A stretch of DNA of 64,000 nucleotides from a virus. Below are positions 4,474 through 51,212 of the stretch, piece by piece. A program made the translations under genes and the position numbers. How positions within the stretch are numbered: the first letter of the stretch is position 1; each line of letters starts with the position of its first letter. The DNA is taken from positions 1-64,000 of the IMG/VR virus record IMGVR_UViG_3300045988_131014. One strand, 5' to 3'. The notes below the pieces were generated by a model. The model saw only the letters and a program-made list of their open reading frames with translations. It had not been told where the DNA came from and ran no database searches.

Positions 4474-5874
4474 CTAAGCGACATTTTCTATATTTAAAAA
4501 ATCAAATATTTCTTCCATAGTTTTTGTTCTTAAATCATCTCTTTTAATAATCTTATAATTTAAATGATTTTCCTTAAACAATTTTTCTTTATATCTTATC
4601 TTGAAAAAATATATCTGTTCTTCACGACTTCTAAGTTTAGAAAAATCATATGTATTTATAAAACCAGCCATTTCAACATACCAAACAGTTCCATCTGTAA
4701 GAGTAAATCTATAATCACAATTCATTTTCCCTTTATAATTAGTAGTGAAATCTACATAAGGTATATCTCTATCATATTTTATACCTTTAGATTTTAACCA
4801 TGTGGATATATCATATTCGCAACTACTGTCACATCTTTCACCATCATCCATATAAAACTCTGGTCTTCTACAATTCGGTTTAAATCCATAATGAATACAA
4901 GTTTCAGCCCAACTTCCAAATCTTTGTTGATAAACCCAAAATGAAGGTCTTCCAGTTTTATTAAAATCCTGTATTGTTGGGACTCTATCATATTCGTTAA
5001 CAAAATCCATAAATGCTTTATCTAACTCAGATTCTTTATATTCAGCTTTCTGATTTATTTTAAGACCAAGTGATTCTAAACAATTATTATATCCACCAAA
5101 ATATTTTTTGAAATAATTTTTAAGTTCAGTTCCATAATATTTATTTATATCACGTATTCCAGGAATTTTATTATATTTTTCAATGTATTCAAATATTATA
5201 TTCTGAAGGAATTCCGCATTATCATGCTTTAATACATAATCATCATTTTCATTTAAAACATAATTTTTTGCATATTCTTTTTCATCAAATCCACACTCAT
5301 GTAAAACATTTTTTCAACTACCAAATTTGTTATTATATGTCTTTCTATTTGGCATACCGTATTCTTTGCCATGAGTATCAATAAATTTAGCACTTGGGAT
5401 AAACCCATTTTCACTTACAAAATTTTTGACTGCTTCAATTAACTCTTCCTTAGAATATGAATGACCTCTATATGTACCAGTTTCTTCAAATCCTAATTCC
5501 TTGTTCATTTTATTAAAACTGCCAAAATAATATAGTATGTCACTTTTTTTAACCTGTTTATTATTTTCAAAATCAGAAAGTTTAATGTTTCTTCCCAATT
5601 GTTCTCTTAATTTAATTGCATATTCACATACTTGTTCTTTAGTAGGACGTTCTCTATAATATGCTTCTTCTCCAAGATATTTTAGAAAATCTGAAAACGT
5701 ACTTATATTCAAATCATCTGGTGCATTTCCAGGATACCAACTCCAACATTTTAATCCCATAAATCCATACTTTAACATTGTACAAGTAATTGTTTTTTCT
5801 AATTGTTTGCAAGCAGATTTATATTTTTCTACTTCGTCATACCATATTTTTTCATCGACTTTGTTTCTTCTCAT
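4474..5874 (-). CDS. homing-endonuclease-like protein with four FGSW-type repeats and a C-terminal nuclease-like domain, interrupted by one in-frame TGA (5314..5316)
   Basis: Track ORFs 5314..5874 and 4474..5010 are in the same frame. The 303 nt between them has no stop. The TGA falls at the Trp position of the repeat (FGS*KNVLHECGF vs FGSWAETCIHYGF). Confidence 0.7.
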
Positions 5875-6182
5875 AAATTTTTCCTACACTTTCCCCTACA
5901 CATACAATAAAAATAGAACAGTAGGAGAGGTGTGTAGGTTGCCACATATACTTGGTAGCTACTCCAAGTATCTACTGTTCCATAAATCCCACAATCAGCT
6001 ATGACACCAATCATGAGCACATATATTTATTCTCTGTTTCCATATAAAATTCGTTGCCGATTTAACATCTCCCAATCCGTATATAAAAACATTGAAAAGT
6101 CCTTCCACTTGGTAATGCTCCAAGCCGATCCGAAGACGACAGATTTACAGTCTGCCCCACATCTTTAGTGGTCTATGAGAGG

Positions 6183-6217
6183 ATACAAAAAGAGTGTGTA
6201 GCATACACCACACACTC
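6183..6217 (-). terminator. Rho-independent terminator after gene 6225..6893
   Basis: GAGTGTGT..ACACACTC stem, followed on the reverse strand by TTTTTGTAT. Confidence 0.6.
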
Positions 6218-6224
6218 TAAATAT

Positions 6225-6893
6225 TTAAAAAATAAAATCAAGCAAATCAAATAATCTTCCAACCGAATTATATTCGTCAAAATCACTTAAATCAATCGGC
6301 TTACTAGAATAAAATTCATGCTTTTCATATCCATTAACATCACTTTTAACAGAAGTAAATCCGTGAATATTTCCGTTTTCATCTTTATCAAATGTAATAT
6401 TTTTATGAGAATCATCACTTACGTCACTGCAACTGCAATTCTTACAATTACAATCATCGTCTACAGCGTCAGCGTCATCACCAATGTTGAATTCGTGAAT
6501 AATGCATCCAGAATCTTTATTGTCCATAACAAAAGCTGAACTCACATCTCCATGAATAAATACAATGTCTGTCTCATCCATATTGATATAAGTATCACTT
6601 CCCTCATACTTGGCAGCCTGAACATATACATTCATTTCAGGATCAATACTAAGAATAAATGCATCATCATAACCATCCCAATAAGGATCATTCAAATCGT
6701 TACAAGAAGCAAGTTTAAAATTCGTATTTTTAATAACAGAATTAAGAACATCTTTCATCACATCATACTTAGCCACAACTACAATTTCTGAACAATCATC
6801 GTCATAATCTCTTGTACAAACATCCAGCTTGTCAAAAGTATCTGCTAAAAATTCAGCAAAATCATTTGTATCTGTAAAACCAAATGTTTTCAA
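6225..6893 (-). CDS. hypothetical highly acidic, Cys-containing protein
   Basis: 222-aa ORF, very D/E-rich (DDADAVDDDCNCKNCSCSDVSDD). Confidence 0.65.
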   Translation of the reverse strand: MKTFGFTDTNDFAEFLADTFDKLDVCTRDYDDDCSEIVVVAKYDVMKDVLNSVIKNTNFKLASCNDLNDPYWDGYDDAFILSIDPEMNVYVQAAKYEGSDTYINMDETDIVFIHGDVSSAFVMDNKDSGCIIHEFNIGDDADAVDDDCNCKNCSCSDVSDDSHKNITFDKDENGNIHGFTSVKSDVNGYEKHEFYSSKPIDLSDFDEYNSVGRLFDLLDFIF

Positions 6894-6914
6894 TATATTT
6901 TCACCACCTTAGAA

Positions 6915-7199
6915 TTAGAGCTGTTTTGCAGACTTTGACATCTTAAAGTAAATCTCATCATGCTGTGGAGTTACATACTCCTCACCTTTGCGATTGCCCA
7001 TCATAATTTTTCCTCTACGCTCTGGAACTTCTTTAACCTTAAACTTTCCAAGTTTACCAACTGCGACTGATTCTGCGAGGTTTGCTGTTAATGTCTCTGT
7101 AATTACATCTGCAAATGCATCAAGAATAACTGCTATGTCCTTCTGTGAAGCTCCTTCAACCTTGTTTGATACTGCCTTTAATACTTCGTTCTTTGTCAT
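6915..7199 (-). CDS. HU/IHF-family DNA-binding protein
   Basis: MTKNEVLKAVS..SQKDIAVILDAFADVITETL..GKLGKFKVKEVPERRG..P is the typical HU fold signature; 94 aa. Confidence 0.85.
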   Translation of the reverse strand: MTKNEVLKAVSNKVEGASQKDIAVILDAFADVITETLTANLAESVAVGKLGKFKVKEVPERRGKIMMGNRKGEEYVTPQHDEIYFKMSKSAKQL

Positions 7200-7370
7200 T
7201 TTAATTTTCTCCTTTTTCTCAATTATTTATTTTTAATGCAAAAGAGGGTAGCGTCTCATTTAAGTACACTCCCTCTGATACATACAATTGTGACAGTAAC
7301 ATCACAATTTCCATACAATCGGACTAATTAAAAATAGAAAATTAGCCCAATTTTCATAGTTACTTATGCA

Positions 7371-7401
7371 TAATATAAAAACCAAGTCACTCGTACTTGG
7401 T
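7371..7401 (-). terminator. Rho-independent terminator after metallophosphoesterase gene
   Basis: ACCAAGT..ACTTGGT stem directly after the stop, then TTTTATATT on the reverse strand. Confidence 0.6.
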
Positions 7402-9123: not shown

Positions 9124-9161
9124 TTCTTTCTTGATTTATTTCCTACAAAGTATGATAGTAG

Positions 9162-9236
9162 TTGGAAATGTAGGATTTGAACCCACGACCTCCTGAACCC
9201 AAATCAGGCGTTCTAACTAAACTGAACTAATTCCCA
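9162..9236 (-). tRNA. second, divergent tRNA-Pro (anticodon TGG), no encoded CCA
   Basis: Reverse strand TGGGAAT/ATTTCCA acceptor, D arm TAGTTCAGTTTAGTTAGAAC, anticodon stem CCTGA/TCAGG with loop TTTGGGT, T arm GTGGG-TTCAAAT-CCTAC. Confidence 0.8.
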
Positions 9237-10069
9237 AAATAAAAAATCCCATACCGAAGTATGAGATCCTTGCTTAATATGAGCTGAGATATTTGACTCA
9301 ATACACTAACATCTACTATGGTTGGACACAGTTTATCACACAAGCGATTAACTTGTAGTTAGCAACAACACCGATTTTGACATAATCGGCAAACTCTTAC
9401 CACAAAGTATTATAGATTTTCTTTCTGCACATTCTTCCTTGCGAGATTCATAGGTTGCAGCCTATTAGAGTTGTACGTACTTGTACTTTCTCATATAACA
9501 CCTTGCGAGTGCTATATGTCACCATATTACAGGTGAATAAGTTGTTTTTCTCTTTGCGGTCGCACACACTTTTGCTGTTTTGTAATTTTCTTTTAAATAT
9601 TTTTACCTAAAATAATTTGATTTCTTTCAAAAGTATGTACTTATTATGGACGATGAGGTGTACATTTGATCATCCGTACCTTTTGAGTACAGCCCAATCA
9701 TCACCATCCTACTCGGATTGCGATCTCCTTGCTTTTTGATTCCATCCCTGTTTTTCAACTTAAGAGATATTACCAAAATCCTATCAGCGGTTATACTTGC
9801 GATATTCCCACCAATAGTACACAAATCATACCCACATTTCTGCGTTACTACAGTGCCTATTTCAAGACACCCACCAATCAACCATATTCGCCAACAGTTG
9901 TCCTTGAATAGAAGGTTGGGCGTAGATTTTATGTGTTTTCCGTTAAACTGTATTTCACAGTCGCAGCCTTATAATACGATAAGAACCACTTTATACATGT
10001 CGCCATGCTTATTTTTGAGATTTAACATCTCCTGATCCGAAACCAACCAGTCCTACAAAAGTAGAAAAG
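9237..10069. ncRNA. About 830 nt non-coding spacer between tRNA-Pro and tRNA-Asn (candidate large structured RNA)
   Basis: No protein-like ORF in six frames; composition differs from the coding parts; multiple hairpins; ends with a conserved 19-mer also found at 6061. Confidence 0.35.
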
Positions 10070-10142
10070 CTCTTCCAGTAAGACTCGAACTTACGACTTT
10101 CGCATTAACAGTGCGATGCTCTACCAACTGAGCTATAAGAGA
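10070..10142 (-). tRNA. tRNA-Asn (anticodon GTT), no encoded CCA
   Basis: Reverse strand D arm TAGCTCAGTTGGTAGAGCA, anticodon stem TCGCA/TGCGA with loop CTGTTAA, T arm GTAAG-TTCGAGT-CTTAC; acceptor has a C4-A69 mismatch. Confidence 0.8.
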
Positions 10143-14062: not shown

Positions 14063-14374
14063 TTACTTACTTTCAGATTTTCCTTCGTTGAAAGCTACAA
14101 TTCCAAACATATCAACAGAAATTATCAATCCTATTGTTCTAATACATAAATTGTCAACCATGATTGCGAAAATAAAAATGAAAGCAATTGATATAAATGT
14201 TAGGAATTCATATATTAACTTTTTATGAAATCTCTTTTTATCAATATAATGCTGTTTATCCTTAAATTTCACATACCAGAAATCTTGTGTGTTGCAAAAC
14301 TGAGGTAATTTATCTTTTAGTTTATTTACAATTTTATTCATCATAGTCCTCCATTTCTTTGTATTTAAATCCAA
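14063..14374 (-). CDS. hypothetical membrane protein
   Basis: 103-aa ORF with two hydrophobic segments (FLTFISIAFIFIFAIMV, GLIISVDMFGIVAF). Confidence 0.6.
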   Translation of the reverse strand: MDLNTKKWRTMMNKIVNKLKDKLPQFCNTQDFWYVKFKDKQHYIDKKRFHKKLIYEFLTFISIAFIFIFAIMVDNLCIRTIGLIISVDMFGIVAFNEGKSESK

Positions 14375-14543
14375 GCCAATTAATTACTTTGTCTGTGCCA
14401 ATACATCCAATACAGTCCTCATGCATATATTCTCCGTTTTCATTATCAAGATAGCGTTCACCTTGATAAATCCCTTCTCCGCAATAGCAGCATAAATATT
14501 TTGTGGTACTAATTGAATAACGGTAATAACCATTACAATGCAT
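14334..14543 (-). CDS. hypothetical Cys-rich (zinc-binding-like) protein
   Basis: CCYCGEG..HEDCIGC pattern and an acidic tail. No SD of its own; overlaps an alternative-frame ORF that has a strong SD. Confidence 0.45.
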   Translation of the reverse strand: MHCNGYYRYSISTTKYLCCYCGEGIYQGERYLDNENGEYMHEDCIGCIGTDKVINWLGFKYKEMEDYDE

Positions 14544-14698
14544 AACACAAAATTAAATATCCTCTTTAATATCTTCAATTTCTTCATATACAATTCCTCC
14601 TTTAAAATTAGATATATTCATTTTACTACCAAAAGAACAATAGTGCAATAATTACATTTTCATAAAGATAGAATAATACATCAAAGGAGGAATTAAAT

Positions 14699-14923
14699 AT
14701 GATACAAGAAAACGAAATACCAAAATATCTCAAATCAACAGAGAGCAATATCTCAAAGAGTAATCGCAAATCAAAACACAAACATCAATATGAAGAATGT
14801 CTTATTCAATATAAATGAAATTTTAAAAGTAACGTATTTACTCAAGAAGAAAAAGAACGTATACATACTTCATTAAGCAGTTACTGTACTATCTGTGGAA
14901 AAATTGGAGGAATAATTAAATGA
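14699..14923 (+). CDS. small protein with in-frame TGA (14816..14818)
   Basis: Strong SD AAAGGAGGAAT. 39 codons, then TGA, then 34 more open codons containing YCTICGK. Confidence 0.4.
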
Positions 14924-14995
14924 AAGAGTAAAACAAAAAATAAGAGTTTAATTAAAATCATTGTAATTGAATATCATAGTAAATGAACTATCTGC

Positions 14996-15068
14996 AAATT
15001 TGTACATTTTTGAGCACATTTTTTCTCTACACTTGGGGAGTGTACGTGCATAAATTTGTACATTTTTG
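14996..15068 (+). repeat. two direct copies of AAATTTGTACATTTTTG, 56 bp apart (iteron/operator-like)
   Basis: Exact 17-mer at 14996..15012 and 15052..15068 in the divergent intergenic region; a third TGTAC lies in between. Confidence 0.7.
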
Positions 15069-15157
15069 CACCATGGTTATTCATAATCATTGATTTTTAA
15101 GTGTTTTACTCTTCTGCACTCCTGTTGGAGAATATATAAGCGAAAGGAAGTGAACAG

Positions 15158-16105
15158 ATGCAATTATGGCTAAGTGAAAAAATATATAAATCAGACAAGC
15201 TTTCTATATATGGCTTAGCAGCCTATTGTGCCATAAAAACCCTTTTGCCTAATGAAGATGTAAAAGAAATATGTACATCTTGTGAAATACTAGCATATCA
15301 GCTTACAAAATCATTAGACTATCCACGTAGATTTTATACTGGTTTGAAAACTGGCTACGATGAGTTAATTGATCAAGGTATTATAAAGCGAGTTAAATCA
15401 AAAGGTAAATTTGACATAATAGATTGTTCTGATCTTTTTATCACAGAAGAAGGTGAATATTTTACAATTATTACCTACGAAGAGATTTTAACGATATGTC
15501 GGCTAAAGGATGTTAATACTCTTCTATTGTTGAAATACTTTATCTTCCTTATTGGAACTATCAGTTCAACGATTGATGTATATATAGACGCATATCAGCA
15601 CAAATGTCGAGTTGTTGGTAATCTTACTATAGAATACATATCTCAACTTTCAGGTATTTCAGAAAGATCCATTATTGATTACAACAAAATATTAGAAAGC
15701 ATTGGTCTTATTTATATTTATAGGCAGAATGATTTTATGATCAATAAAGATTCATGTGAAATAACTCGTTTACCAAATGTATACGGCAGACCTGAAGATC
15801 AGTTGTATATTGACGCTTTTGCTATTAGCCAACGAAAATATAAAGATTCATATAAATATGTGGAGAATAATATAAAGAAGGCTAATGCCAAAAGACGACT
15901 TGCTCAAATGTATAATCAAATCTGTAAAAATAAAGATTTTAAATATTCTGAAGAAGATATCCAACAAGTCTATGCATATGTCTTGCAAGAAAATCACAAA
16001 TATGAAGCAACTTACAAAAAGAATAATGATGAGTCATGTTTGGAAAAGATTCGTGATATACGAGTATTTGATAAATATGACTTCATAACAAAGGAGGAAA
16101 ATTAA
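15158..16105 (+). CDS. hypothetical protein, possible winged-helix DNA-binding / replication-initiator-like
   Basis: 315-aa ORF, first gene of the forward block. HTH-like LTIEYISQLSGISERSIIDYNKILESIGLI. Confidence 0.6.
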   Translation: MQLWLSEKIYKSDKLSIYGLAAYCAIKTLLPNEDVKEICTSCEILAYQLTKSLDYPRRFYTGLKTGYDELIDQGIIKRVKSKGKFDIIDCSDLFITEEGEYFTIITYEEILTICRLKDVNTLLLLKYFIFLIGTISSTIDVYIDAYQHKCRVVGNLTIEYISQLSGISERSIIDYNKILESIGLIYIYRQNDFMINKDSCEITRLPNVYGRPEDQLYIDAFAISQRKYKDSYKYVENNIKKANAKRRLAQMYNQICKNKDFKYSEEDIQQVYAYVLQENHKYEATYKKNNDESCLEKIRDIRVFDKYDFITKEEN

Positions 16106-16107
16106 AT

Positions 16108-16335
16108 ATGGGAAGAATGGTAAAAATCGCAGTAACAAATGAGATAGGTGACTCAAATCAATTATATAAAATTGGTACAAAATGGTTTAAGAACAAAGAA
16201 CATTATATCAATACACTAAAATCGTCCGACCTATCATATCAGACCGTATTAGACTTATTGGAGTCAGATAAAAATTGTTTATTTTCTGATAATGTTAAAA
16301 CAAAGATAATTAAATTATTAGAAAATGAATTATAA
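16108..16335 (+). CDS. hypothetical protein
   Basis: 75-aa ORF with SD AAGGAGGAAAAT upstream. Confidence 0.65.
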   Translation: MGRMVKIAVTNEIGDSNQLYKIGTKWFKNKEHYINTLKSSDLSYQTVLDLLESDKNCLFSDNVKTKIIKLLENEL

Positions 16336-16431
16336 AACAGAGAATATACATATGTAACCATTAACGCAGCACTCAAAGGAGCTGATGCAAAATGAACAAA
16401 TTATTTTTAAACAGAAAAGGAGAACTAATTA

Positions 16432-16593
16432 ATGAACAGAACAGTAACAATTACATCAAAGAACCATAAATACCAGAATACATACGGAGGAAATATTTGT
16501 GCTTCAGATTTTTGTACTGACTATGAAGGATCTCGAAATATTGCAGATAAGATTTTCGCAGATTGGGTTTTCGATCGCTCATGTGAAAAGTAA
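16432..16593 (+). CDS. hypothetical small protein
   Basis: 53-aa ORF with SD AAAGGAGAAC upstream. Confidence 0.5.
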   Translation: MNRTVTITSKNHKYQNTYGGNICASDFCTDYEGSRNIADKIFADWVFDRSCEK

Positions 16594-16636
16594 ATGAATA
16601 ACAGTATTAGAAGTTATAGAGAAAGGAAAATGAACA

Positions 16637-16939
16637 ATGGCAGATAAAAATATGACAGTTTCAATTGAAGAACAGGAAGTTTGTATCAATATGATGCGTG
16701 ATGAGAAATTTGCAACAATTTATGCTTCAGATTCTACATATATTACTAAATTGGATAGATTGTGTAAGGAAAGCCCTGATATGTACTCTCTCATTCAAGA
16801 TACTGGTAGAGGCAAGAAATATTTATTAAAGGATAAAACATTAATCAGTTTTAGAGCGAAGAAACGTGAACTTACAGATGAACAGAAGAAACAAGTTGCT
16901 GAACGTATGAGAAAATATCAAGCTAGTAAATCTAACTGA
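16637..16939 (+). CDS. hypothetical protein
   Basis: 100-aa ORF with SD GAAAGGAAAA upstream. Confidence 0.65.
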   Translation: MADKNMTVSIEEQEVCINMMRDEKFATIYASDSTYITKLDRLCKESPDMYSLIQDTGRGKKYLLKDKTLISFRAKKRELTDEQKKQVAERMRKYQASKSN

Positions 16940-17125
16940 GATGTCATTTCTAGCCAGAATTTCTAATGTACACCATTGTACAGAAAATTCTACGCCATTC
17001 GGTGAACAAATACCCATCTAAAAATTGTAACTTGAAAATTTAAACAACTGTATTAAAGGAGAATTAAATAACTATATGTGTAGTATGATATTCCTGAAAA
17101 TGCATATTCGGGACAGTATAATAAA

Positions 17126-17329
17126 ATGATCAAAATTGTAAACAATAATGATGTTACTGTTAATGTTAATATTTCTATTAAACAATACGATAAGGATGGA
17201 TTTTATATTAGACAAAACACAAATGATTATATAGTAAATAAAAATACTTATATTATTGCATTAATGGAATATAATAATGGACGTGTAATAGATTTTAATA
17301 ATCCAATACAATATGACGAACAGTTTTAA
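17126..17329 (+). CDS. hypothetical protein
   Basis: 67-aa ORF whose ATG overlaps the TGA of an SD-preceded 17-codon leader ORF (17076..17129), an ATGA coupling. Confidence 0.5.
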   Translation: MIKIVNNNDVTVNVNISIKQYDKDGFYIRQNTNDYIVNKNTYIIALMEYNNGRVIDFNNPIQYDEQF

Positions 17330-26514: not shown

Positions 26515-26949
26515 ATGAAAAAAGACAAATTAACAGCAGAATTTTTTGAAAATGCGATTTGCAAAAATAAAGACATGGAAACAAAAGAATATTGGAGTAA
26601 TATTTTTAAGTCTAATTTGAAAACTTTTTTGGATGAAGTGGATGAGAATGACTTTAAGGAAATTAGAGATAATGTAAATTCAGATTATCTAATGGATTAT
26701 AATACATATCAAAATCATTATAGTTTTATTTGCGAAGTGATTGACATAGATATGGAAGATACATATGAGCCTTACAAAAGACAAATGAATAAAATTAAAA
26801 GACTGTCTGAAGGATATTCAAATATTGTTCAAAAATTTCCAGACAATATTGATTATAATGTTGAATTTTCGAGAAGTAGCTTGTCTGTATATTTGAATAC
26901 AAACGTTCCTGTTGCAGAGAATAATATTGATAGATTTCTTAATATCTGA
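26515..26949 (+). CDS. hypothetical protein; frame stays open 54 codons past its TGA (to 27114)
   Basis: SD GAGGTG upstream. TGA at 26947..26949 is followed by a protein-like ETIRGINITETYSEYEESDYKNK.. in the same frame. Confidence 0.6.
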   Translation: MKKDKLTAEFFENAICKNKDMETKEYWSNIFKSNLKTFLDEVDENDFKEIRDNVNSDYLMDYNTYQNHYSFICEVIDIDMEDTYEPYKRQMNKIKRLSEGYSNIVQKFPDNIDYNVEFSRSSLSVYLNTNVPVAENNIDRFLNI

Positions 26950-27129
26950 GAAACAATTAGAGGGATCAATATTACAGAAACATACTCTGAATATGAAGAA
27001 AGTGATTACAAGAATAAAACAATTGTGATTAGAATGTCGGATCACGATTTTGGTGGAAACAGAGACTACTCATATAAAATACCTTGTATCAATATTGTTT
27101 TAGAGAATAAATAGATTGGAGTGATAAGA

Positions 27130-28628: not shown

Positions 28629-28829
28629 ATGAATGATGTATTAGAACAGCGATTAGCTGCAAAGAAGCGAGATTTGGAAAATCAACAAGAATATTTCAGA
28701 ATTGATATGAAAAACATTGAACAATCAAATTATGAAGATAATGCTATTAATGCATTATTATACATGAAGAAACTGAAAACGGAAATTGCAGAGTTAGAGT
28801 TAGTGATGCAGTTGAAAAAAGACAAATGA
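28629..28829 (+). CDS. hypothetical coiled-coil-like protein
   Basis: TTTCTTTTGG box plus GGAAGGA SD upstream. Confidence 0.6.
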   Translation: MNDVLEQRLAAKKRDLENQQEYFRIDMKNIEQSNYEDNAINALLYMKKLKTEIAELELVMQLKKDK

Positions 28830-37430: not shown

Positions 37431-37799
37431 TCAATTTGGTAATAAGCAATAGCTTTTACATAAAAGATGGGCAACGATATGTCGTGAAGTTGCTGTTGCC
37501 CATCTCGCATATCAACTAGGAATAATCCAGAAGTCGATATACATATATAGTATCTCATTTCTATGGCTGAATCAATATCCAAATGACATTCTTCTCGTTC
37601 TGAGTTGGATTATTCCATTATTAAAAATGGTAAATGAACAGAAATTAAAATAGAAATATCAAAATAAAGTTCGATTTCTTTGGAAAATGAAAGGAGAAAA
37701 ATATGATTACAAAGACATTATATACTTGTCAGTTCTGTAATACTGATTATACAAAGAAATGAAAAAGCAATTGAACATGGTAAAATCGCTAAACATTCA

Positions 37800-38084
37800 A
37801 TGCATTTGATTCGTCTGTATATGATGTGTTTGGATATTCTTGAAAAAGAGAGAATAATCACGTATAGAGAAGACGAACATGATTTACTTATGGATATTCG
37901 TAATGGTAAGTATTTGGATAGCAACGATCAGCCAATCCCAGAATTCTTTGAAATGGTAAATGATTATGAAAAGAGATTGGATTATGCGAAGAAGAACACA
38001 AATCTTCCTGATAATCCTAATTATAAGGCTATCAATGAATTTGTTGCTAGTGTAAATGAAAGGGTGGTAAAAGGTGAAATCTAA
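37800..38084 (+). pseudogene. C-terminal fragment of an RlaP-like (RNA-repair-associated) nucleotidyltransferase family protein
   Basis: KHSMHLIRLYMMCLDILEKERIITYRE resembles the family's C-terminal helix. The N-terminal catalytic half is absent. The SD-preceded ATG at 37703 is in another frame and stops at TGA 37760. Confidence 0.4.
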
Positions 38085-39426
38085 TCTAAAAATTGAAATT
38101 CCATATGGTGCAAATGAAATTATTCATACCTTACAGAATAATGGATATGAAGCTTTCTTAGTTGGAGGGTGCGTAAGAGACAGTATCCTTGGAAGACCAA
38201 TTCACGATTATGACATTACAACTTCTGCCACACCAGATGAAATGATGGAAGTATTCAAGGACAAGAGAATTATTGAAACTGGTTTGCAACATGGAACTAT
38301 TACCATTGTAATTGACGGTGATGGATATGAATGTACCACTTACAGAATTGACGGTAATTACTCAGATAGTCGTAGACCTGATAGTGTAACATTTACACGA
38401 AATCTTAAAGAAGATTTAAAGCGTAGAGATTTTACAATCAATGCAATGGCATATAATGATGAAGTTGGTCTTGTAGATCCGTTTAATGGTATGGAAGATA
38501 TTAAATACCACAAGATTAGATGTGTTGGTAGAGCAGAAGACAGATTTTCAGAAGATGCATTAAGAATTTTACGTGCTATTCGGTTTGCATCACAGTTGGG
38601 ATTTGTCCTTGAACCTGATACAGATTGGAATATCTCTAAAATGTATAAGAATTTGGAGAATATATCTATTGAAAGGATCAATAGTGAGTTCTGTAAAATT
38701 GCTGCATCGAGTGATTTCTGTGTACAAATGGTCTTATATCACGAAGTATTCTCATTGTTCATTCCTGAAATTAAAGACATGTTTGGCTTTCAACAGAATA
38801 ATCCATATCATATTTATGATGTATGGAATCATACAGTACATGCAATAGAATATTGTGAATCTGATGATTTAGTAACAAGATTAGCTGTGTTCTTTCATGA
38901 CATAGGAAAGCCACGTTGTTATCAAGATAGCGAGGATGGTATTAGACATTTCAAAGGTCATGGAAGAGTCAGTGCTGATATGACTGATAAAATAATGAAG
39001 CGATTAAGATTTGACAATGATACAAGAGAAAAGGTCGTTGAATTAGTCTATTATCATGATGCTACTTTTGAGGTGGGAAAGAAATATATCAAGAGATGGC
39101 TTAATAAAATTGGGGAAGAACAGTTCAGAAGGTTATTAAATGTTCGTAGAGCTGATATTAAAGCACAAGCAGACATTAATCAGGGAACAAGGTTACAGAA
39201 GATTGATAACATCGGATATATTTTAGAAGAAGTCTTACAGGATGATGAATGTTTTTCTCTAAAGGATTTAGCAGTTAATGGAAAGGATTTAATTACTATT
39301 GGATATAAGCCAGGAAAAGAAATTGGTGAGGTATTAAATAATCTGTTGGATTCAGTCATTAGTGGAGAATATATAAATGAGAAAGAAAAACTATTAGAAA
39401 TAGCAGAGAGAAGATTACATGGTTAA
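38074..39426 (+). CDS. cca: CCA-adding tRNA nucleotidyltransferase with HD domain
   Basis: GGCVRDSILGRPIHDYDITT, RRDFTINAMA, LRAIRFASQLGF, and HD motif FFHDIGKP. Confidence 0.9.
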   Translation: MKSNLKIEIPYGANEIIHTLQNNGYEAFLVGGCVRDSILGRPIHDYDITTSATPDEMMEVFKDKRIIETGLQHGTITIVIDGDGYECTTYRIDGNYSDSRRPDSVTFTRNLKEDLKRRDFTINAMAYNDEVGLVDPFNGMEDIKYHKIRCVGRAEDRFSEDALRILRAIRFASQLGFVLEPDTDWNISKMYKNLENISIERINSEFCKIAASSDFCVQMVLYHEVFSLFIPEIKDMFGFQQNNPYHIYDVWNHTVHAIEYCESDDLVTRLAVFFHDIGKPRCYQDSEDGIRHFKGHGRVSADMTDKIMKRLRFDNDTREKVVELVYYHDATFEVGKKYIKRWLNKIGEEQFRRLLNVRRADIKAQADINQGTRLQKIDNIGYILEEVLQDDECFSLKDLAVNGKDLITIGYKPGKEIGEVLNNLLDSVISGEYINEKEKLLEIAERRLHG

Positions 39427-41583: not shown

Positions 41584-42108
41584 ATGAGAGAAACATTAAT
41601 TGTTGTAGATATGCAGAATGATTTTATTGATGGAACACTTGGTACAAAGGAAGCACAGGCAATTGTATCAAATGTAGCAAAGAAAATTAAGGAGTATAAG
41701 GATGCTGGTAAGCAGGTAATTTTTACAAGAGATACACATTCTGAGAATTACTTAGAAACATACGAGGGTAAGCACCTTCCTGTTGCTCACTGTGTAAAGA
41801 ATACTATTGGTTGGCAGATTTCCGATAAGTTAGATTTTGATATTGAGAACGATATTCTGATTGATAAGCCTACATTTGGTTGTTTAAACTGGAAGGATTT
41901 TGGATTTGAAAGCGTTGAGATTTGCGGATTATGCACCGATATCTGTGTGGTTTCAAATGCACTTATTATCAGAGCAAATTATCCTGAGATTGATATTACA
42001 ATAGATGCAAGTTGCTGTGCAGGTGTCACACCTGATACTCACAAGGCTGCATTAGCAACTATGAAGATGTGTCAGATCGAAGTGATTGGAGAGAATAATG
42101 AAGTGTAA
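41584..42108 (+). CDS. pncA: nicotinamidase (isochorismatase/cysteine-hydrolase family)
   Basis: VVDMQNDF (Asp), DTH..LPVAHCV..T.GWQI (metal site / PncA-type), IDKPTFG (Lys), ICGLCTDICV (Cys). Confidence 0.8.
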   Translation: MRETLIVVDMQNDFIDGTLGTKEAQAIVSNVAKKIKEYKDAGKQVIFTRDTHSENYLETYEGKHLPVAHCVKNTIGWQISDKLDFDIENDILIDKPTFGCLNWKDFGFESVEICGLCTDICVVSNALIIRANYPEIDITIDASCCAGVTPDTHKAALATMKMCQIEVIGENNEV

Positions 42109-42652
42109 GAATTATATCATTAATACTTTCAGACATTTTAAGAAAGTCTGTACTCATAAACGTTGGGTATTCTACTATTGCTGTAAAGTGGGAATTCCAT
42201 TTCAAGGGTTAGTACATGATTTATCTAAATTTTCTCCAACGGAATTTTGGGAGAGTGTTAAGTATTATCAAGGTACTTCAAGTCCAATAGATGCTTGCAA
42301 GAAAGAGAATGGTTGGTCAGTAGCTTGGATGCACCATAAAGGAAGAAACAAGCACCATTACGAATATTGGCAGGACAATTTTGATAATGGTGGAAATCCT
42401 ATTGAAATGCCAATGAAGTATAAAAAAGAAATGCTTTGTGATTATCTTGGAGCAGGTAGAGCATATCATGGTAAATCATTTAATTTTGAGAAGGAATTAA
42501 AATGGTGGGAATCTAAGAAAAGTAAACCAATTGCAATGCATCCAAATGACATGGCTTTTATTGATAAGTACATTAATCTGTTTTATGAGTACGAAAACAG
42601 AGAATATGATATTAGAACAATATTTAATCAAATCAAGAAAGAAGGAAAATAA
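42098..42652 (+). CDS. His/Trp-rich protein of unknown function inside the NAD operon (DUF5662-like by recollection)
   Basis: GGAG 7 nt upstream. LVHDLSKFSP..WMHHKGRNKHHYEYWQD. Overlaps pncA and abuts pncB. Confidence 0.6.
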   Translation: MKCKNYIINTFRHFKKVCTHKRWVFYYCCKVGIPFQGLVHDLSKFSPTEFWESVKYYQGTSSPIDACKKENGWSVAWMHHKGRNKHHYEYWQDNFDNGGNPIEMPMKYKKEMLCDYLGAGRAYHGKSFNFEKELKWWESKKSKPIAMHPNDMAFIDKYINLFYEYENREYDIRTIFNQIKKEGK

Positions 42653-42653
42653 T

Positions 42654-43862
42654 ATGGAGCAGATTATTACAAGTTTGTTGGAGACAGATGCCTACAAATT
42701 GTCAATGGGACAGGCTATTTATCATCAGTTTAGCGATTATAAAACCACTTGGAGTTTTAAATGTCGTAATAAGGATGTTCATTTTACACCAGAAATGGTA
42801 GAAGAGATCCGTAGACAGATTAAATTATATTGTGGTTTGAGATTCACAGAAGATGAACTTACTTATATTGATAATATCAAATGGATGAAAGGTTCATATG
42901 TTGATTTTCTGAGATTGTGGCAGCCAAGATATGAGGATTTTGAGATTACAACAGATTCAGATTGTGGTCTTTCTATCGAAACATTTGGTACATGGCTTAA
43001 TACATCTATGTATGAGATTCCTACACTTGCGATTGTAAACGAAGTATATTTCAGAATGGCATATAACTATGAGGAATTGCTTAATAGTTTCAAAAAGAGA
43101 TTAGATGAAAAGTACGAAAATCTCAGAAGCGGTCATTGGTACGCTGGTACATTTTCTGAATTTGGTCTTAGAAGAAGACTTTCTGCTGAAGCACAGGAGT
43201 TAGCTGTTGAGAAGTTTTCACATTTGAATGATACATTACACAGTCCATCTAAGTTTGTTGGTACATCTAATGTATATCTCGCAAAGAAATACAATCTCAC
43301 GCCTGTTGGAACTATGGCTCATGAATGGATTATGTGTTCTGGTCAGGGCAATCACAAGCACAATCCAGCATATTCAAACTGGTATGCCATAGACGCATGG
43401 GTTAGAGAGTATGGTGTGTTAAATGGTATTGCGCTCACAGACACAATTACAACTGATTGTTTCTTGAAAGATTTTCAGTTGACATATGCAACATTATTCA
43501 GTGGTGTAAGACATGATAGTGGCGATCCGATTGAATGGGGTGAAAAGATGATTAATCATTATGAGTCACTTGGTATCAATCCTAAGACAAAGACACTTCT
43601 GTTTAGTGACAGTCTTGATTTTGAAAGAGCTGATAAGTTATTCAGACACTTCCATGATAGAGTAAACGTTGCATTTGGAATTGGTACTTATTTGAGTAAT
43701 GACACAGATGTTCCCGCTTTAAATATTGTAATGAAAACCACTAAATGTAATGGCATGGATGTTGCAAAAGTGTCTGATGTAGAAGGTAAAGGTATGTGTA
43801 AAAACCCTGATTATGTTGATTATTTAAAGAGATGTATTAATTGGAGAATGAATCATGAATAA
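42654..43862 (+). CDS. pncB: nicotinate phosphoribosyltransferase
   Basis: Collinear with E. coli PncB: LLETDAYKLSMGQA, FGLRRRLS, FVGTSNVYLAKKY.LTPVGTMAHEW, GIALTDT, GVRHDSGDPIEWGEK, FGIGT, NIVMK..KCNG..VAK.SD. Confidence 0.9.
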   Translation: MEQIITSLLETDAYKLSMGQAIYHQFSDYKTTWSFKCRNKDVHFTPEMVEEIRRQIKLYCGLRFTEDELTYIDNIKWMKGSYVDFLRLWQPRYEDFEITTDSDCGLSIETFGTWLNTSMYEIPTLAIVNEVYFRMAYNYEELLNSFKKRLDEKYENLRSGHWYAGTFSEFGLRRRLSAEAQELAVEKFSHLNDTLHSPSKFVGTSNVYLAKKYNLTPVGTMAHEWIMCSGQGNHKHNPAYSNWYAIDAWVREYGVLNGIALTDTITTDCFLKDFQLTYATLFSGVRHDSGDPIEWGEKMINHYESLGINPKTKTLLFSDSLDFERADKLFRHFHDRVNVAFGIGTYLSNDTDVPALNIVMKTTKCNGMDVAKVSDVEGKGMCKNPDYVDYLKRCINWRMNHE

Positions 43863-44481
43863 AATTTTACTTATACCAGGAAGTTTTAATCCAATTACTA
43901 ACGCCCATGTTGATATGGCATTGACTGCTAAAAAAGCGGTTAATGCCGATGCTATATTGTTTATTCCTGCACATGATACATATGTTGCGAAGAAAAAGAT
44001 TTTGATACCTGGATATTGTCGAGTATCGCTGATTAATTCAATGCCAAATTGTGAGGAAAATAATATGTGCGCATCCGAAGTTGAAACAACCAGCTTCTTT
44101 CCACAGAGGACATACAATACTATTACTCAGATAAGAGATATGAATGAAAAAGATTATATTTTCAACGAATACTATATTTGTTTAGGAATGGATAATATTG
44201 AAACACTTACAACTTGGTATAATTGGAAACCGTTTGTTGAGGAATATAATTTTGTAGCATGTGTGAGGGAAGGTCAGAATCTTGAGACTGCTTTAAGAGA
44301 AGCAAATCTTATGGAATATAAAGATCACTTCACAGAAATTCAGATACCAGAAAATCACACTTCTTCAAGTTTGGTTAGAGATTTATGTGAAAAGGGTGAA
44401 TTTGAAAAAGTAAAAGAATTAGTTCCTAGAAATGTATATGAGTATTTAATTCGGTTCTATGATGTGATGAATCGAATGTAG
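43855..44481 (+). CDS. nadD: nicotinate-nucleotide (NaMN/NMN) adenylyltransferase
   Basis: PGSFNPITNAH (HxGH-type motif) and C-terminal TSSSLVRD (ISSTxxR-type motif); 8-nt overlap with pncB. Confidence 0.8.
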   Translation: MNKILLIPGSFNPITNAHVDMALTAKKAVNADAILFIPAHDTYVAKKKILIPGYCRVSLINSMPNCEENNMCASEVETTSFFPQRTYNTITQIRDMNEKDYIFNEYYICLGMDNIETLTTWYNWKPFVEEYNFVACVREGQNLETALREANLMEYKDHFTEIQIPENHTSSSLVRDLCEKGEFEKVKELVPRNVYEYLIRFYDVMNRM

Positions 44482-44497
44482 GAAGGAGAATATATAA

Positions 44498-45262
44498 ATG
44501 TTTGATGCTAAGAAAGTAAAGAATGAGATCGTAGAGTGGATTAGAGATTGGTTTGAACAGAATGGTAAAGATTGTATGGCAGTAGTTGGAATTTCTGGCG
44601 GTAAAGATTCAAGTGTTGTAGCTGCATTATGTGTAGAAGCTCTTGGAAAAAATAGAGTAATTGGAGTCCTTATGCCAAATGGACATCAATCAGATATTAT
44701 GGATGCATATAAATTATGCAAATTACTGAATATTAAAAGTATTGAGGTTAATATAAAAGAAACTGTAGATAGTGTGTACGATGCTATTCGTTATGGTGTT
44801 TATGATGATACACGACAAGGTTTTGACGAATTAAACATATCTGTACAGTCCAGAATTAATTTACCACCAAGAATTAGAATGGCTACATTATATGCTATTT
44901 CTCAGTCAGTAAATGGTCGTGTTGCTAATACATGTAATCTTTCTGAGGATTGGGTAGGTTATGCTACAAAATATGGCGATGCCGCTGGTGATTTCAGTCC
45001 ATTATCTCAGCTTACAGTAACAGAGGTTAAGGCTCTTGGTCGTGAGTTAGGACTTACATCTGAATTAATTGACAAGACACCTACCGATGGTCTTTGTGGA
45101 AAGACAGATGAAGATAATCTTGGATTTACATATGCAGAATTAGACGCATATATCAGAGATGGAATCGAGCCAAATGAGGAAGTAAAAGCTAAGATTGATT
45201 CAATGCATGAGAAAAATCTGTTTAAATTACAGCCAATGCCAAGTTTTGTGTATCAAGCGTAA
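44498..45262 (+). CDS. nadE: NH3-dependent NAD+ synthetase
   Basis: PP-loop VVGISGGKDSSVVAAL; NadE-like DWVGYATKYGDAAGDFSPL and TPTDGL. Confidence 0.9.
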   Translation: MFDAKKVKNEIVEWIRDWFEQNGKDCMAVVGISGGKDSSVVAALCVEALGKNRVIGVLMPNGHQSDIMDAYKLCKLLNIKSIEVNIKETVDSVYDAIRYGVYDDTRQGFDELNISVQSRINLPPRIRMATLYAISQSVNGRVANTCNLSEDWVGYATKYGDAAGDFSPLSQLTVTEVKALGRELGLTSELIDKTPTDGLCGKTDEDNLGFTYAELDAYIRDGIEPNEEVKAKIDSMHEKNLFKLQPMPSFVYQA

Positions 45263-47471: not shown

Positions 47472-47753
47472 ATGAATAAGAGACAGAAAAAGAAATTTAT
47501 TAAGAATAATATGACAAAGCTAAGGAAGATACATCCAAATGAAGGTGATATTGTAGTTCTTCAATGGAATCCAGATAGTGAATATATAAATTTTGACACC
47601 ATTGTTGAGTTCTATAAAGCTTGGGAGAATGCAGGAATTTTTGATAAATGCGGAGCTGCTATTGTTCCGTGCGACTTTAAGATTTTCAACAAGGAAGAAG
47701 CTCAGATATATATTGATAAGTTACAGAGCATTGTAGATCAGATGGGAGAATAA
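47472..47753 (+). CDS. hypothetical protein
   Basis: 93-aa ORF preceded by the AAGAGAATAA motif. Confidence 0.6.
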   Translation: MNKRQKKKFIKNNMTKLRKIHPNEGDIVVLQWNPDSEYINFDTIVEFYKAWENAGIFDKCGAAIVPCDFKIFNKEEAQIYIDKLQSIVDQMGE

Positions 47754-47757
47754 GAAC

Positions 47758-48138: not shown

Positions 48139-48244
48139 AGAAGCATTTCCTGTTGATTTTATCTAAGAGCGTTTCTGCTCACAATTTCCAAAATAAAAGA
48201 GAGAATAATTAAGCGACAATAAAAGTTTGAAGGAGATATGTTTT

Positions 48245-48937
48245 ATGAGTAAGAAGCAACAATTTAAAGGTTTGAAATTTAATTATTCCATAAATGGGAA
48301 AGGCTTGAAAAGTAAATATAAGACAATCAAGGATTTCTTAAACACAGAATTCCCAAAGAACAATAATCCATTGTCGCCTACTCTTGATACAGAGATTACA
48401 GGAATTAAATGGAATGGTAATACTATTTCTATTTCCAATAAAATTCACACAGTAAGAGATTTGGTTAACTTATTAAGCAAGAAAAATACAGAAAATGTTT
48501 TTATTTCAAATAAAGATATTAGATTGCATGAGTTTAAACCAAAACATGACAATCTCATCAGAAAATCCACGTACTCCATAGGAGAGGTACACGATAAGGT
48601 TAAAGATGTTTTATTTGAGAAAGATAAAAGACTTGCAAAAGTTGATTTCGATGGGGATTTAATTAAGGGTAACAGCCAGAGATACCAGACTTTTTTCACT
48701 AAAGGCTGTAAATGTGCAGTTTGTGGAATTGAAGGAAAATATTTTGCAAAAGAAAGACATTTGCAGGATAAGAATTATCATCTGAATTTGTATGCAGTTG
48801 ATGATAATGGTGATGAAATTTTAATGACAAAAGATCATATTATACCACGCTCAAAAGGTGGTATTGATGATATTAGTAACTATCAAACAATGTGTAAGCT
48901 TTGTAATGAAGCAAAAGGCAACAAATTAGAAGATTAA
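48245..48937 (+). CDS. HNH endonuclease
   Basis: C-terminal CAVCG..KDHIIPRSKGGIDDISNYQTMCKLCNEAKGNK. Confidence 0.85.
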   Translation: MSKKQQFKGLKFNYSINGKGLKSKYKTIKDFLNTEFPKNNNPLSPTLDTEITGIKWNGNTISISNKIHTVRDLVNLLSKKNTENVFISNKDIRLHEFKPKHDNLIRKSTYSIGEVHDKVKDVLFEKDKRLAKVDFDGDLIKGNSQRYQTFFTKGCKCAVCGIEGKYFAKERHLQDKNYHLNLYAVDDNGDEILMTKDHIIPRSKGGIDDISNYQTMCKLCNEAKGNKLED

Positions 48938-49009
48938 AAATAAGAAAGGAAAAATAGAAAAGTTCCTATAGGATAAAGTGCGCACTACTTACTAAGATAA
49001 GAGGAACTT

Positions 49010-50329
49010 ATGTATTGTGCTTATATCACAACATTAAAAGGATTAAGAAAACATAGTAACGCTGATAGATTACAGTGTGTAGAAGTATTTGGACAGAATG
49101 TAATTGTAGATTTGAGTTATCATGAAGGGCAGAAAGTGGTCTTCTTCCCATCTGACGGTCAGTTATCACTTGAGTATGCAACAGATAACAACCTTGTAAG
49201 GAAGAAAGACGAAAGCGGAAACAACATTGGTGGTTATATGGATGCTGAGAAGAGAAATGTAACCGCTATTAGACTTAGAGGTGAGAAGTCAGAAGGACTT
49301 GTATTACCTGTTGAGACGCTTTCTAAGTATACAGATATTTCAAAATTAAAAGATGGCGATCAGATTACAGTTCTTGGTGGTCATGAGATTTGTCAGAAAT
49401 ATATTCCTAGTGGAAAGAATCGTTCAAGAAGTGATGGAAATAGTTCAAATAAGAAGAACAAGTTTCAGAAAGAAACAGTATCATATCCATTTTTTGAGGA
49501 GCATAAAGATACTGCACAGCTTGCATATAATATGTCAGCATTTAAGCCAGGAGATACAATTTATATTACTCGTAAGCTCCATGGAACATCAGCTCGTACT
49601 ATGAAGACTGTTAAGGTTACAAAGAAGAATAGTAAACTGAGAAAGTTCTTACATATGCAGCCAAAGGTTACAAGAGAAGTTTCTGTTGTATCTGGTAGCA
49701 GAAGAGTTGTATTAAAGGATATGACAAAGAATGATGGATATTATTCTGATAATGGATTTAGAAAGAAGTACCACGATTTATTAAAAGACAAGCTTCCTGA
49801 GGGTGCTGAGATTTTCTATGAAATTGTAGGATATGTAAATGAAACAACACCAATTATGGGTTCAGTATCTAATAAAGGAGTTAAGGAAAAAGAATTTACA
49901 AAGAAATTTGGTGACATCACAACATTCTCATATGGTTGTGAGCCAGGCGAAAATGAGATGTATGTATATCGAATGACAATGACAACAGCAGACGGAACAG
50001 TTGTTGAAGTGCCTTGGGAGATTGTAGAGGTATGGTGTGACAAGTTGGGTGTTAAGCATGTACCTGATTTAGAGAAGTTTATTTTTACTACACCAGAAGA
50101 TTTGAAAGAAAGAGTAAATAAATATCTTGATGGTATGCCAGCAGATGAAATCGGTAAGACACATGTTGCCGAAGGTGTAGTTGTTCGTATTGATAACAGA
50201 GCAACATTCACGGCTTATAAGGATAAGGTGTTTGAATTTAAGGTAATTGAGGGGATCGCCAAAGATACATCTGATGTACCTGATATGGAAGAAGCTGAAG
50301 AATTATTTGAGGAGACTTTAAATGAATAA
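49010..50329 (+). CDS. ATP-dependent RNA ligase (Rnl2/DRB0094-like)
   Basis: N-terminal NADRLQCVEVFGQNVIV module, motif I RKLHGTS, motif IV AEGVVVRI, motif V YKDKVFEFK. Confidence 0.75.
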   Translation: MYCAYITTLKGLRKHSNADRLQCVEVFGQNVIVDLSYHEGQKVVFFPSDGQLSLEYATDNNLVRKKDESGNNIGGYMDAEKRNVTAIRLRGEKSEGLVLPVETLSKYTDISKLKDGDQITVLGGHEICQKYIPSGKNRSRSDGNSSNKKNKFQKETVSYPFFEEHKDTAQLAYNMSAFKPGDTIYITRKLHGTSARTMKTVKVTKKNSKLRKFLHMQPKVTREVSVVSGSRRVVLKDMTKNDGYYSDNGFRKKYHDLLKDKLPEGAEIFYEIVGYVNETTPIMGSVSNKGVKEKEFTKKFGDITTFSYGCEPGENEMYVYRMTMTTADGTVVEVPWEIVEVWCDKLGVKHVPDLEKFIFTTPEDLKERVNKYLDGMPADEIGKTHVAEGVVVRIDNRATFTAYKDKVFEFKVIEGIAKDTSDVPDMEEAEELFEETLNE

Positions 50330-51212
50330 ACCTACAATGTGGGTACTCGTTTGACTGAGTGGTAGTGGCAAGTCAACCATTGCTACTCAGATTGCCAATG
50401 AGAATCCAAATACAGTAATCGTATCATCAGACGCAATTCGTGAAGAATTAACAGGTAATTACGAAGATCAAGAACATAACGAAGAAGTGTTTAAGATTTT
50501 TCACGATAGAATCCGCAAGAATTTGGAGAATAAAAAGAATGTAATTGCAGATGCAACTAATCTAACTATGAAATCTCGTAGAGCAATTATGATGAAAGTA
50601 AATGGTTTAAATGTCAGAAAAGTATGTGTAATTATTCCAAAGCCATTTAAACAGTGCAAAAAAGATAATCTACATAGAGAACATCCTGTACCTGATTTTG
50701 TGTTGGATAAGCAGATTAGAAAATATCAGATTCCGTTCTACGAGGAAGGATTCGATGAGATTATTATTCATAAATTTCATAATGCTAATGCAATGACCAC
50801 AGGTGGATTGATTGCTAAAATGAAAGATTTTGACCAGAAGAATCCTCATCATACTATGACTTTAGAAAATCATTGCTTTAATACATATGATTTATTTACA
50901 GAAAAAGGACATAAAGCTGAATACAATATTGGAGCAGTTCTTCATGATTATGGCAAACTATACTGCCAGACAATTGATGAAAATGGTATAGCTCATTATT
51001 ATGACCACCCATCTGTCGGATGCTATTTGGTTTTAGAGAGTTTAATGGAAGAGTTTAATAAGGTTGTATTAGATATATGTTTCCTCATCAATTACCATAT
51101 GATGCCTTTTAGTTGGGATACTGATAAAGCAAAGCAGCGTTGGAAAGAAAGATTTGGAGAATATAAATATAAGATGCTTTTAGATTTCAATGAATGTGAT
51201 AAAGCGAGGTAA
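50322..51212 (+). CDS. polynucleotide kinase (P-loop) fused to HD phosphohydrolase, with in-frame TGA at 50352..50354
   Basis: MNKPTMWVLV*LSGSGKST: the TGA sits at the first Gly position of Walker A. Downstream are SSDAIREEL, DATNL and the HD motifs HHTMTLENH..LHDYGK. The ATG overlaps the ligase stop. Confidence 0.7.

Follow-up and report, generated by a model that had tools for sequence, protein, structure and literature searches.

In-frame TGA codons in an SPbeta-like human-gut phage element are probably ordinary nonsense mutations in accessory genes of one strain

Under genetic code 25, which is that of the Gracilibacteria/Absconditabacteria, TGA is read as Gly. Among gut phages, alternatively coded genomes are described in which TGA is read as Trp (code 4) or TAG as Gln (code 15) (bioRxiv 10.1101/2021.08.26.457843; PMC9523058). 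In-frame stops with putative read-through are also widespread in prokaryotic genes (Belinky et al. 2021, PMC7918605), and grounded or defective prophages accumulate nonsense and deletion pseudogenes under relaxed selection (reviewed in PMC6379469). Here we analyze in-frame TGA codons in a stretch of viral DNA of 64,000 nucleotides (IMG/VR record IMGVR_UViG_3300045988_131014, positions 1 to 64,000; referred to as the window herein), whose source is an SPbeta-like temperate phage or prophage of ∼130-160 kb with hosts among the human-gut Lachnospiraceae. A reading made from the letters of the window (the sequence-only reading herein) had listed four genes interrupted by a single TGA together with a fifth, related case, and had offered regulated UGA read-through, a suppressor tRNA, decay of accessory genes, and assembly errors as explanations. 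We find that the TGAs are very probably ordinary single-base knock-outs in accessory genes that decay by mutation accumulation in one strain, which is a kind of event already known. Decay is the only one of the four proposed explanations with evidence behind it.

The locus resembles grounded prophages in its one-step stops, deletions, inversion, missense load, damaged tRNAs, neutral-like substitution ratio, and GC>AT bias. It differs from them in that its comparable structural genes carry only one recent missense change; the element may be neither defective nor integrated, and the mutation load could be recent and not the sign of a dead prophage. With the alternatively coded gut phages, it shares a low GC content, tRNA genes, a large size, an association with Firmicutes, and TGAs in otherwise intact genes. 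Unlike in those phages, only four sites are affected, two of the TGAs replace Gly, relatives have sense codons at the sites, many genes end in TGA, reading TGA as sense hardly changes coding density, and the genes hit are accessory rather than late genes. Code 25 would match the two TGAs that fall exactly where relatives have Gly, whereas the other two replace Trp, many genes end in TGA, and the hosts of the relatives are Lachnospiraceae, for which the standard code is inferred. As in the cases of Belinky et al. 2021, the stops lie in otherwise undamaged genes, the stop in question is TGA, which is deemed leaky, and the alleles are short-lived in evolution. In contrast to those cases, three of the four genes are hit in a single strain, the fourth is further damaged here, and all three stop types are polymorphic in this phage population.

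The coordinates and frames of all five sites are as first described. On the reverse strand at 5314..5316, TGA replaces the Trp of an FGSW motif, with 279 open codons beyond it. At 50352..50354, TGA stands at the first Gly of a P-loop (MNKPTMWVLV*LSGSGKST) and is followed by 285 open codons. The TGAs at 26947..26949 and 14816..14818 are followed by 54 and 34 open codons, respectively, the latter including CTIC, and the TGA at 37760..37762 closes a 23-codon ORF with an upstream Shine-Dalgarno sequence. Such continuations had been estimated to be unlikely by chance, which did not survive a count over the 116 ORFs of at least 60 amino acids on the coding strands: at least 55 codons are open past TAA in 10/79, at least 59 past TAG in 4/18, and at least 54 past TGA in 2/19. 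Long continuations occur after any stop because adjacent genes often share a frame, and since those after TAA and TAG are equal or longer, we dropped the length of the open frame as a statistic. It is homology that shows the interruptions to be real, as each gene aligns with an intact copy in close relatives. In the DNA of these relatives, each of the four TGAs is one substitution away from a sense codon, which is TGG at 5314 and 14816 and GGA at 26947 and 50352. With the exception of that at 14816, these TGAs are private to one strain. The sequence-only reading had already noted a conflict between Trp-like and Gly-like contexts, which was the right clue. The list of cases itself held for the four TGAs, while its fifth case is a deletion scar and a TAA nonsense codon at 16591..16593 had been omitted. 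We also considered and rejected a TGA at 28829, which is a normal gene end: the relatives shown at this place have TGG, but they differ by a 1-nt indel 14 nt before it, and their own frame, a different one, ends within a few codons. Likewise, the "TGGA" shared by the four sites is not a target motif, as it consists of TGG followed by A (twice) and of G>T at the 5′ G of GG (twice).

The TGA at 5314 is codon 187 of a 466-codon HNH_repeat (homing-endonuclease-associated repeat) gene on the minus strand (4474..5874; Pfam PF18780, E=8e-31). Over 1410 nt, two related loci (L004 and L007) are a single base apart from the window, with TGG in place of TGA, and two others (L005 and L008) have TGG at the site too. 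The intact 466-aa form is found on 85+46+38 contigs and the cut 186-aa form on 4-5 contigs. A similar picture was obtained for the TGA at 26947, which is codon 145 of a 199-codon gene on the plus strand with no assigned function (26515..27114). Here L011, with 2 differences in 600 nt, as well as L009, L010, and L013, have GGA and an intact 199-aa ORF; intact forms occur on 41-98 contigs each, compared with 4-7 for the 144-aa form. Five different assemblies agree in their bases. The assemblies that are 100% identical to the window (ERZ918381/ERR912143, ERZ827518 NODE_53, ERZ28659983, ERZ27256552, and JGI 3300029850) probably come from one sample and are termed the same strain herein; coverage of the reference contig is ∼6.8x according to its record name.

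The TGA at 50352 is codon 11 of a 296-codon gene on the plus strand (50322..51212) that encodes a P-loop kinase (Pfam AAA_33, E=1e-21) with an HD domain and probably serves an RNA-repair set as its kinase/phosphatase. Ancestrally, the codon was GGA, for the first Gly of the Walker A motif. Both L001 and L002 have GGA at this site, the protein P0001, which is 99% identical to the kinase, has Gly, and the codon is GGT, GGA, GGG, or GGC in 71/79 aligned loci and TGA in none, the other eight being alignment shifts. The identical TGA was found in a second sample, ERR14023264, on a contig (L276) that is without the private G>A at 48997 of the strain, which fits a real lineage gaining mutations stepwise. 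Elsewhere, the kinase was lost independently by a +1 G frameshift in L273 (about 9850, codon 7) and by TGG>TGA at W274 in L037 (12130-12132, codon 274). Among close orthologues, the kinase is disrupted in 3/23 by three different lesions, as against 1/57 for the adjacent RNA ligase and 0/58 for an 852-aa gene. Given that the start-proximal P-loop is lost, the truncated product of the window would be non-functional.

The TGA at 14816 has a different history. It is codon 40 of what remains of a small Cys/His-rich gene on the plus strand (14699..14923), whose relatives encode proteins of up to ∼125-140 aa (∼140 codons in L022). The closest database homologues, with lengths of 78-129 aa, have W at the position of the TGA, and L193 and L211 have TGG in their DNA. 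According to the alignment, the copy in the window further lacks the 66 codons of the C-terminus, which were removed by a deletion of ∼198 nt between the direct repeats GGAG(G)AATAATTAA, with the junction at about 14907-14921. This TGA is not private: the 39-aa product occurs in 122 blocks of the collection and the exact sequence on 72 contigs, and in L022-L031 the same TGA is followed by 100 further open codons in 10/10 other strains. Because the copies that carry it are 99-100% identical to each other, there has been little time for decay and the intact frame says little on selection. The omitted nonsense codon lies nearby, where a 71-codon gene on the plus strand (16432..16647) is cut to 53 codons by a private CAA>TAA change at 16591..16593. 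Base 16591 is C in 11/12 aligned relatives and A in one, the T of the window is found in none, and L022, L023, L024, L026, and L030 read ...SCEKQMNNSIRSYRERKMNNGR in this region.

Both of these genes lie within a segment of 2.6 kb (14488..17087), along with 315-, 75-, and 100-aa ORFs, that BLAST against L022, gene tables, and gene orientation show to be inverted. The segment is flipped relative to both flanks, unlike in every other sampled relative (L022-L031, L193, L211, and L254). For instance, the 315-aa and 852-aa genes point in opposite directions only in the same-strain loci L015 and L016 and in the same direction in L023, L193, L211, and L254. The breakpoints cut a 79-aa CxxC gene, the 3′ part of which is now the ORF 14334..14543 on the minus strand with a new N-terminus. 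No long inverted repeats were found at the breakpoints, only ∼12-15 nt of shared sequence. Within the same area, assemblies of the same strain disagree at 14841..15123 and 16828..17135 (L015 9403-9966 and 11670-12235): two duplications are present in L015, one of them a tandem duplication of 283 nt, and ∼208 extra nt in L016. L017 begins at 14841, the end of L003 lies near 14966, and the starts of four short contigs fall at 14998-15094; the disagreement around 14841..17135 reflects either real heterogeneity or an assembly problem. The 100-aa gene (orthologue of 16637..16939) has TAA alleles of its own in L024, L025, L027, L028, and L031 (codon 54) and in L193 (codon 45).

The fifth site, where a +1 shift had been noted as needed to join the ORF ending in TGA to an RlaP frame, was compared with L014, L012, L172, L149, and L107 over 37703..38084 on the plus strand. 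A 70-aa CxxC gene is present here with only its first 19-23 codons, joined out of frame to the last ∼108 codons of an RlaP nucleotidyltransferase gene; the fusion leaves the former at codon 23 and enters the latter at codon ∼246. On the left side, L014 and L012 have the intact 70-aa gene, and their homology to the window ends at about 37775. On the right side, L172, L149, and L107 have the full ∼342-aa RlaP (PF10127, E=1e-14) and match the window from about 37755. The junction shows a microhomology, AGAAA(T)GAAAAAGCAAT, within a near-identical stretch of 17 nt, and the TGA at 37760..37762 is RlaP sequence (A AAT GAA) in the wrong frame. Judged by these alignments, the site is a microhomology deletion scar and not a recoding site. 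The deletion at 37.76 kb comprises several kb and took 245 of the ∼342 RlaP codons along with DUF8224, Tpt1, and further genes that are present in relatives. Tpt1 and DUF8224 belong to the RNA-repair set of the relatives, of which the window retains the RlaP remnant, a CCA-adding enzyme, the RNA ligase, the P-loop kinase with HD domain, and PTH2 (37757..39426 and 49010..52277).

We then considered the stops together with the other recent mutations of the strain. For this analysis, 271 related loci were piled on the window, positions were kept where the base of the window is absent from all relatives, tracts of clustered differences were removed as imported alleles, and a strict set was defined by at least 6 relatives per position. 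This yielded 41 isolated private substitutions, consisting of 21 missense, 4 nonsense, and 2 synonymous changes, 2 changes in tRNA genes, and 12 intergenic changes. The nonsense changes are the three private TGAs and the CAA>TAA at 16591. The spectrum comprises 20 C>T, 11 C>A, 8 T>C, and 2 T>A, so that 76% of the changes are GC>AT in a genome of 32% GC. A 5′-TC signature of C>T, as from a deaminase toxin, was looked for and rejected, as there is no enrichment of a 5′ T (T 7, G 6, A 5, C 2). Guanine oxidation prefers the 5′ G of GG doublets, and 7/11 of the G>T changes fall at this base (P = 6e-4); without the two GGA>TGA events, the count is 5/9 (P about 0.008, by hand calculation). The spectrum of the strain thus resembles that left by oxidative damage, and the missense:synonymous ratio of the branch is neutral. 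When this spectrum is spread randomly over the genes of the window, 71% missense, 7% nonsense, and 21% synonymous changes are expected under neutrality. Compared with this, the observed 21:4:2 gives P = 0.13 for at least 4 nonsense among 27 coding changes and P = 0.05 for at most 2 synonymous. The non-synonymous:synonymous ratio on the branch is 25:2, where the neutral ratio is 3.7:1, and is compatible with no purifying selection.

As a control, we applied the same procedure to the same strain using the structural genes just left of the window and 80 terminase loci. Here we found 32 synonymous changes and 1 missense change, mostly AT>GC. This is old divergence under purifying selection, and the method makes no missense excess by itself; the comparable structural genes (4.4 kb) have only 1 missense change of the recent type. 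The two private changes in tRNA genes are predicted to be structurally damaging. In tRNA-Pro(UGG) (9161..9236, minus strand), a G>A at 9218 removes a G of the conserved D-loop GG, the ancestral base being present in 14 relatives (ARAGORN cloverleaves of both forms were compared), and in tRNA-Asn(GUU) (10069..10142, minus strand), a G>A at 10074 turns the acceptor pair C4-G69 into a C.A mismatch. Stops are not restricted to this strain either. A survey of 1511 orthologue alignments of window genes gave 30 distinct in-frame stop events, of which 13 are TAG, 11 TAA, and 6 TGA, and Trp codons were lost in relatives by TGG>TAG in 4 events and by TGG>TGA in 3. Polymorphic nonsense codons of all three types are thus common in this group of phages.

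Taken together, these results are at odds with stage-specific recoding of TGA, in which a suppressor tRNA from another part of the genome would bring about code 4 or code 25, and we give this reading almost no credence. The ancestral codons (TGG, TGG, GGA, GGA) mix Trp and Gly, and hence no single recoding fits. Close relatives read ordinary TGG or GGN where the window has TGA, and the TGAs other than that at 14816 are private, so that a code shared by the lineage is not seen. The genes hit belong to the accessory, early region and not to late or lysis genes, and no in-frame stop occurs in the structural genes to the left of the window. A TAA nonsense and deletions go along with the TGAs. TGA terminates 19 of the 116 ORFs (16%) and TAG 18. 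In a greedy ORF model, coding density rises by 2.5-3.9 points with TGA as sense, compared with 1.4-2.4 for TAG and 6-8 for the TAA control, far under the gain of >10% used as the criterion for recoded phages on 5-100-kb contigs (bioRxiv 10.1101/2021.08.26.457843). For code 25, related prophages reside in Eubacterium segne BX4 and in Lachnospiraceae metagenome-assembled genomes (MAGs), and two of the TGAs replace Trp. A low GC content and tRNA genes favor recoding, yet neither the window nor the adjoining 6.6 kb on its left has a tRNA(UCA), and the 418 tRNAs predicted for 281 loci, almost all of which belong to related phages, include none. The scanned part of the genome of the strain, which is about half of it, with ∼60 kb outside, likewise showed no suppressor tRNA and no gene for a release factor. 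The absence is not decisive, as suppressor tRNAs are detectable in only 35-40% of recoded phages (bioRxiv 10.1101/2021.08.26.457843). A gathering-threshold search of the window with Rfam found 7 tRNAs only and no selenocysteine insertion sequence (SECIS) or other recoding RNA, and at the sites homologues have W or G, never C, which argues against selenocysteine. Programmed read-through of the Qbeta A1 type is contradicted by the sense codons of relatives at 5314, 26947, and 50352, and the 14816 TGA, being shared by a near-identical clade only, is uninformative on it. As a separate observation, several relatives have odd predicted tRNAs (L143 17035..17107 and 17111..17185, L141 17104..17178, L206 11333..11406, and L207 20725..20798), one with the anticodon UUA, which is ochre-suppressor-like, and several with 8-nt anticodon loops (ttta, ttga, gatg); none of them lies within the window and none reads UGA.

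Leaky decoding without any recoding would make some of the alleles hypomorphs rather than nulls, as near-cognate tRNA-Trp(CCA) would insert Trp at a few percent. At the former Trp codons at 5314 and 14816, this would yield a low level of wild-type protein, and such alleles could be tolerated and spread. The UGA read-through of ∼6% reported for Bacillus subtilis and the insertion of Trp in enterobacteria (reviewed in PMC7918605) agree with this idea, as do the wide distribution of the 14816 TGA and its intact 100-codon frame in L022-L031. The phage also has its own tRNA-Trp(CCA), located next to tRNA-Pro at L003 14463..14536, 25-98 nt left of the start of the window. However, Trp at the two Gly sites would restore no function, one of them being the Walker A glycine, the 14816 gene of the window is without its C-terminal 66 codons as well, and TGG>TAG is as common in relatives as TGG>TGA, which gives TGA no advantage in tolerance. 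The near identity of the 14816 carriers again leaves their intact frame with little information. We also rejected a Hirsh-type or anticodon-mutant tRNA-Trp: the anticodon loop of the phage tRNA is ordinary (CUCCAAA), and its D-stem pair C11-G24 is unlike that of the Hirsh-type suppressor. We regard leaky decoding as unlikely, and slightly more so the specific proposal that the TGG>TGA alleles of the phage group are leaky hypomorphs through tRNA-Trp, possibly boosted by the phage tRNA-Trp(CCA). It is similarly improbable that selection favored the knock-outs, with loss of the kinase, RlaP, or HNH_repeat being advantageous, for instance if the product is costly or is sensed by a host defence. 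The repeated loss of the kinase compared with its neighbors, the loss of two members of the RNA-repair set (RlaP and the kinase) in one strain, and a nonsense count of about twice the neutral expectation all point in this direction. Nonetheless, the nonsense excess is not significant, knock-out alleles other than that at 14816 are rare (4-9 contigs vs dozens to hundreds intact), and 21 missense and two damaging tRNA changes spread over unrelated genes are what unselected accumulation predicts and targeted selection does not. Finally, artefacts of sequencing, DNA damage, or assembly in one low-coverage metagenome are very improbable, even though damage in libraries classically shows as C>T and G>T, the contig coverage is low, and the sister contig L276 lacks the 48997 G>A. 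The kinase TGA recurs in an independent sample, the 14816 TGA occurs in more than 100 assemblies, and the bases are identical in five different assemblies. In addition, 41 consensus errors in ∼46 kb at ∼7x would be far above the yield expected from per-read damage, and deletions and an inversion cannot be base-calling errors. Assembly errors, as proposed earlier, are hence unlikely as a general cause.

Accumulation of ordinary knock-outs thus remains the reading that we favor, and the one-step stops, the neutral-like ratio, and the other lesions (the TAA at 16591, the 198-nt and several-kb deletions, the inversion, and the tRNA changes) are consistent with it. On its terminal branch, the strain gathered point mutations under little or no purifying selection. 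Most of them are transitions (C>T/G>A) or, where a G is the first of a GG doublet, G>T transversions, for which cytosine deamination and guanine oxidation are the likely sources. G>A twice turned TGG (Trp) into TGA, G>T twice turned GGA (Gly) into TGA, and C>T once turned CAA into TAA. On the same branch, or in recent history, two deletions at microhomologies or direct repeats and one inversion were added. The outcome would be truncated pseudogenes of HNH_repeat, the small Cys-rich gene, the 199-aa and 71-aa genes, the RNA-repair kinase, and RlaP, all of them accessory, with products that are presumably non-functional. Selection may be relaxed because the prophage is grounded, because of a recent bottleneck, or because the host is a mutator. 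As to the predominance of TGA, 25% of new stops are expected to be TGA if context is ignored. Once the GG preference is included, GGA>TGA becomes the likeliest single nonsense route and the expected share rises to 48%, with a probability of 0.29 that at least 3/4 private nonsense changes are TGA. Several points weigh against this explanation. The same probability falls to ∼0.05 without the context correction, and this correction owes part of its fit to the two GGA>TGA events. Nonsense changes are about twice as many as neutrality predicts (4 observed vs 1.9 expected), although this excess is not significant. The carriers of the 5314 and 26947 alleles all probably come from the single run ERR912143 at ∼6.8x. 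The 14816 TGA is the dominant allele of its clade and keeps a 100-codon frame in the ten other strains, which is more persistence than a simple dead gene should show. Lastly, the tRNA scan extends to only about half of the genome of the strain.

The window is part of a group of human-gut metagenomic phages, with sizes of roughly 130-160 kb, that is both very large and densely sampled, and flanking genes of the relatives match SPbeta Yon* Pfam families, tyrosine integrases, and Ku. No near-identical match was found by megablast among GenBank phages (INPHARED). A related prophage occurs in Eubacterium segne BX4, more distant ones in Lachnospiraceae MAGs were found via the kinase alignment, and one homologue carries the label Coprococcus; a search of GTDB genomes with a GmrSD-like protein as host query gave nothing. 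We infer that the hosts are Clostridia with the standard genetic code. With a GC content of 32% and 7 tRNA genes, the window has its genes on the minus strand to ∼14.5 kb and on the plus strand beyond. Among its other features is a contiguous block of NAD salvage genes on the plus strand (41584..45262), labeled from Pfam matches of the identical contig L272 as isochorismatase/nicotinamidase, DUF5662, NAPRTase, a NadD-like nucleotidyltransferase, and NAD synthase.

For the interpretation of such genomes, our analysis indicates that a few in-frame TGAs in a low-GC, tRNA-bearing gut phage can mimic incipient recoding, while near-identical relatives reveal an ordinary nonsense load. Where phage genes are tightly packed, an open frame past a stop is no evidence, a mixture of ancestral residues such as Trp and Gly speaks against recoding, and a GC>AT-biased spectrum with G>T at GG by itself favors TGA among new stops. 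Mildly interesting in their own right are the concentrated damaging load in one strain, the loss of the kinase in several lineages, and the one common TGA allele. Were the last of these a leaky hypomorph after all, unlikely as we hold this to be, it would explain the dominance of the 14816 TGA with an intact downstream frame and would represent a heritable way to turn a gene down without losing it, possibly a first step to TGA>Trp recoding in a low-GC Firmicutes phage.

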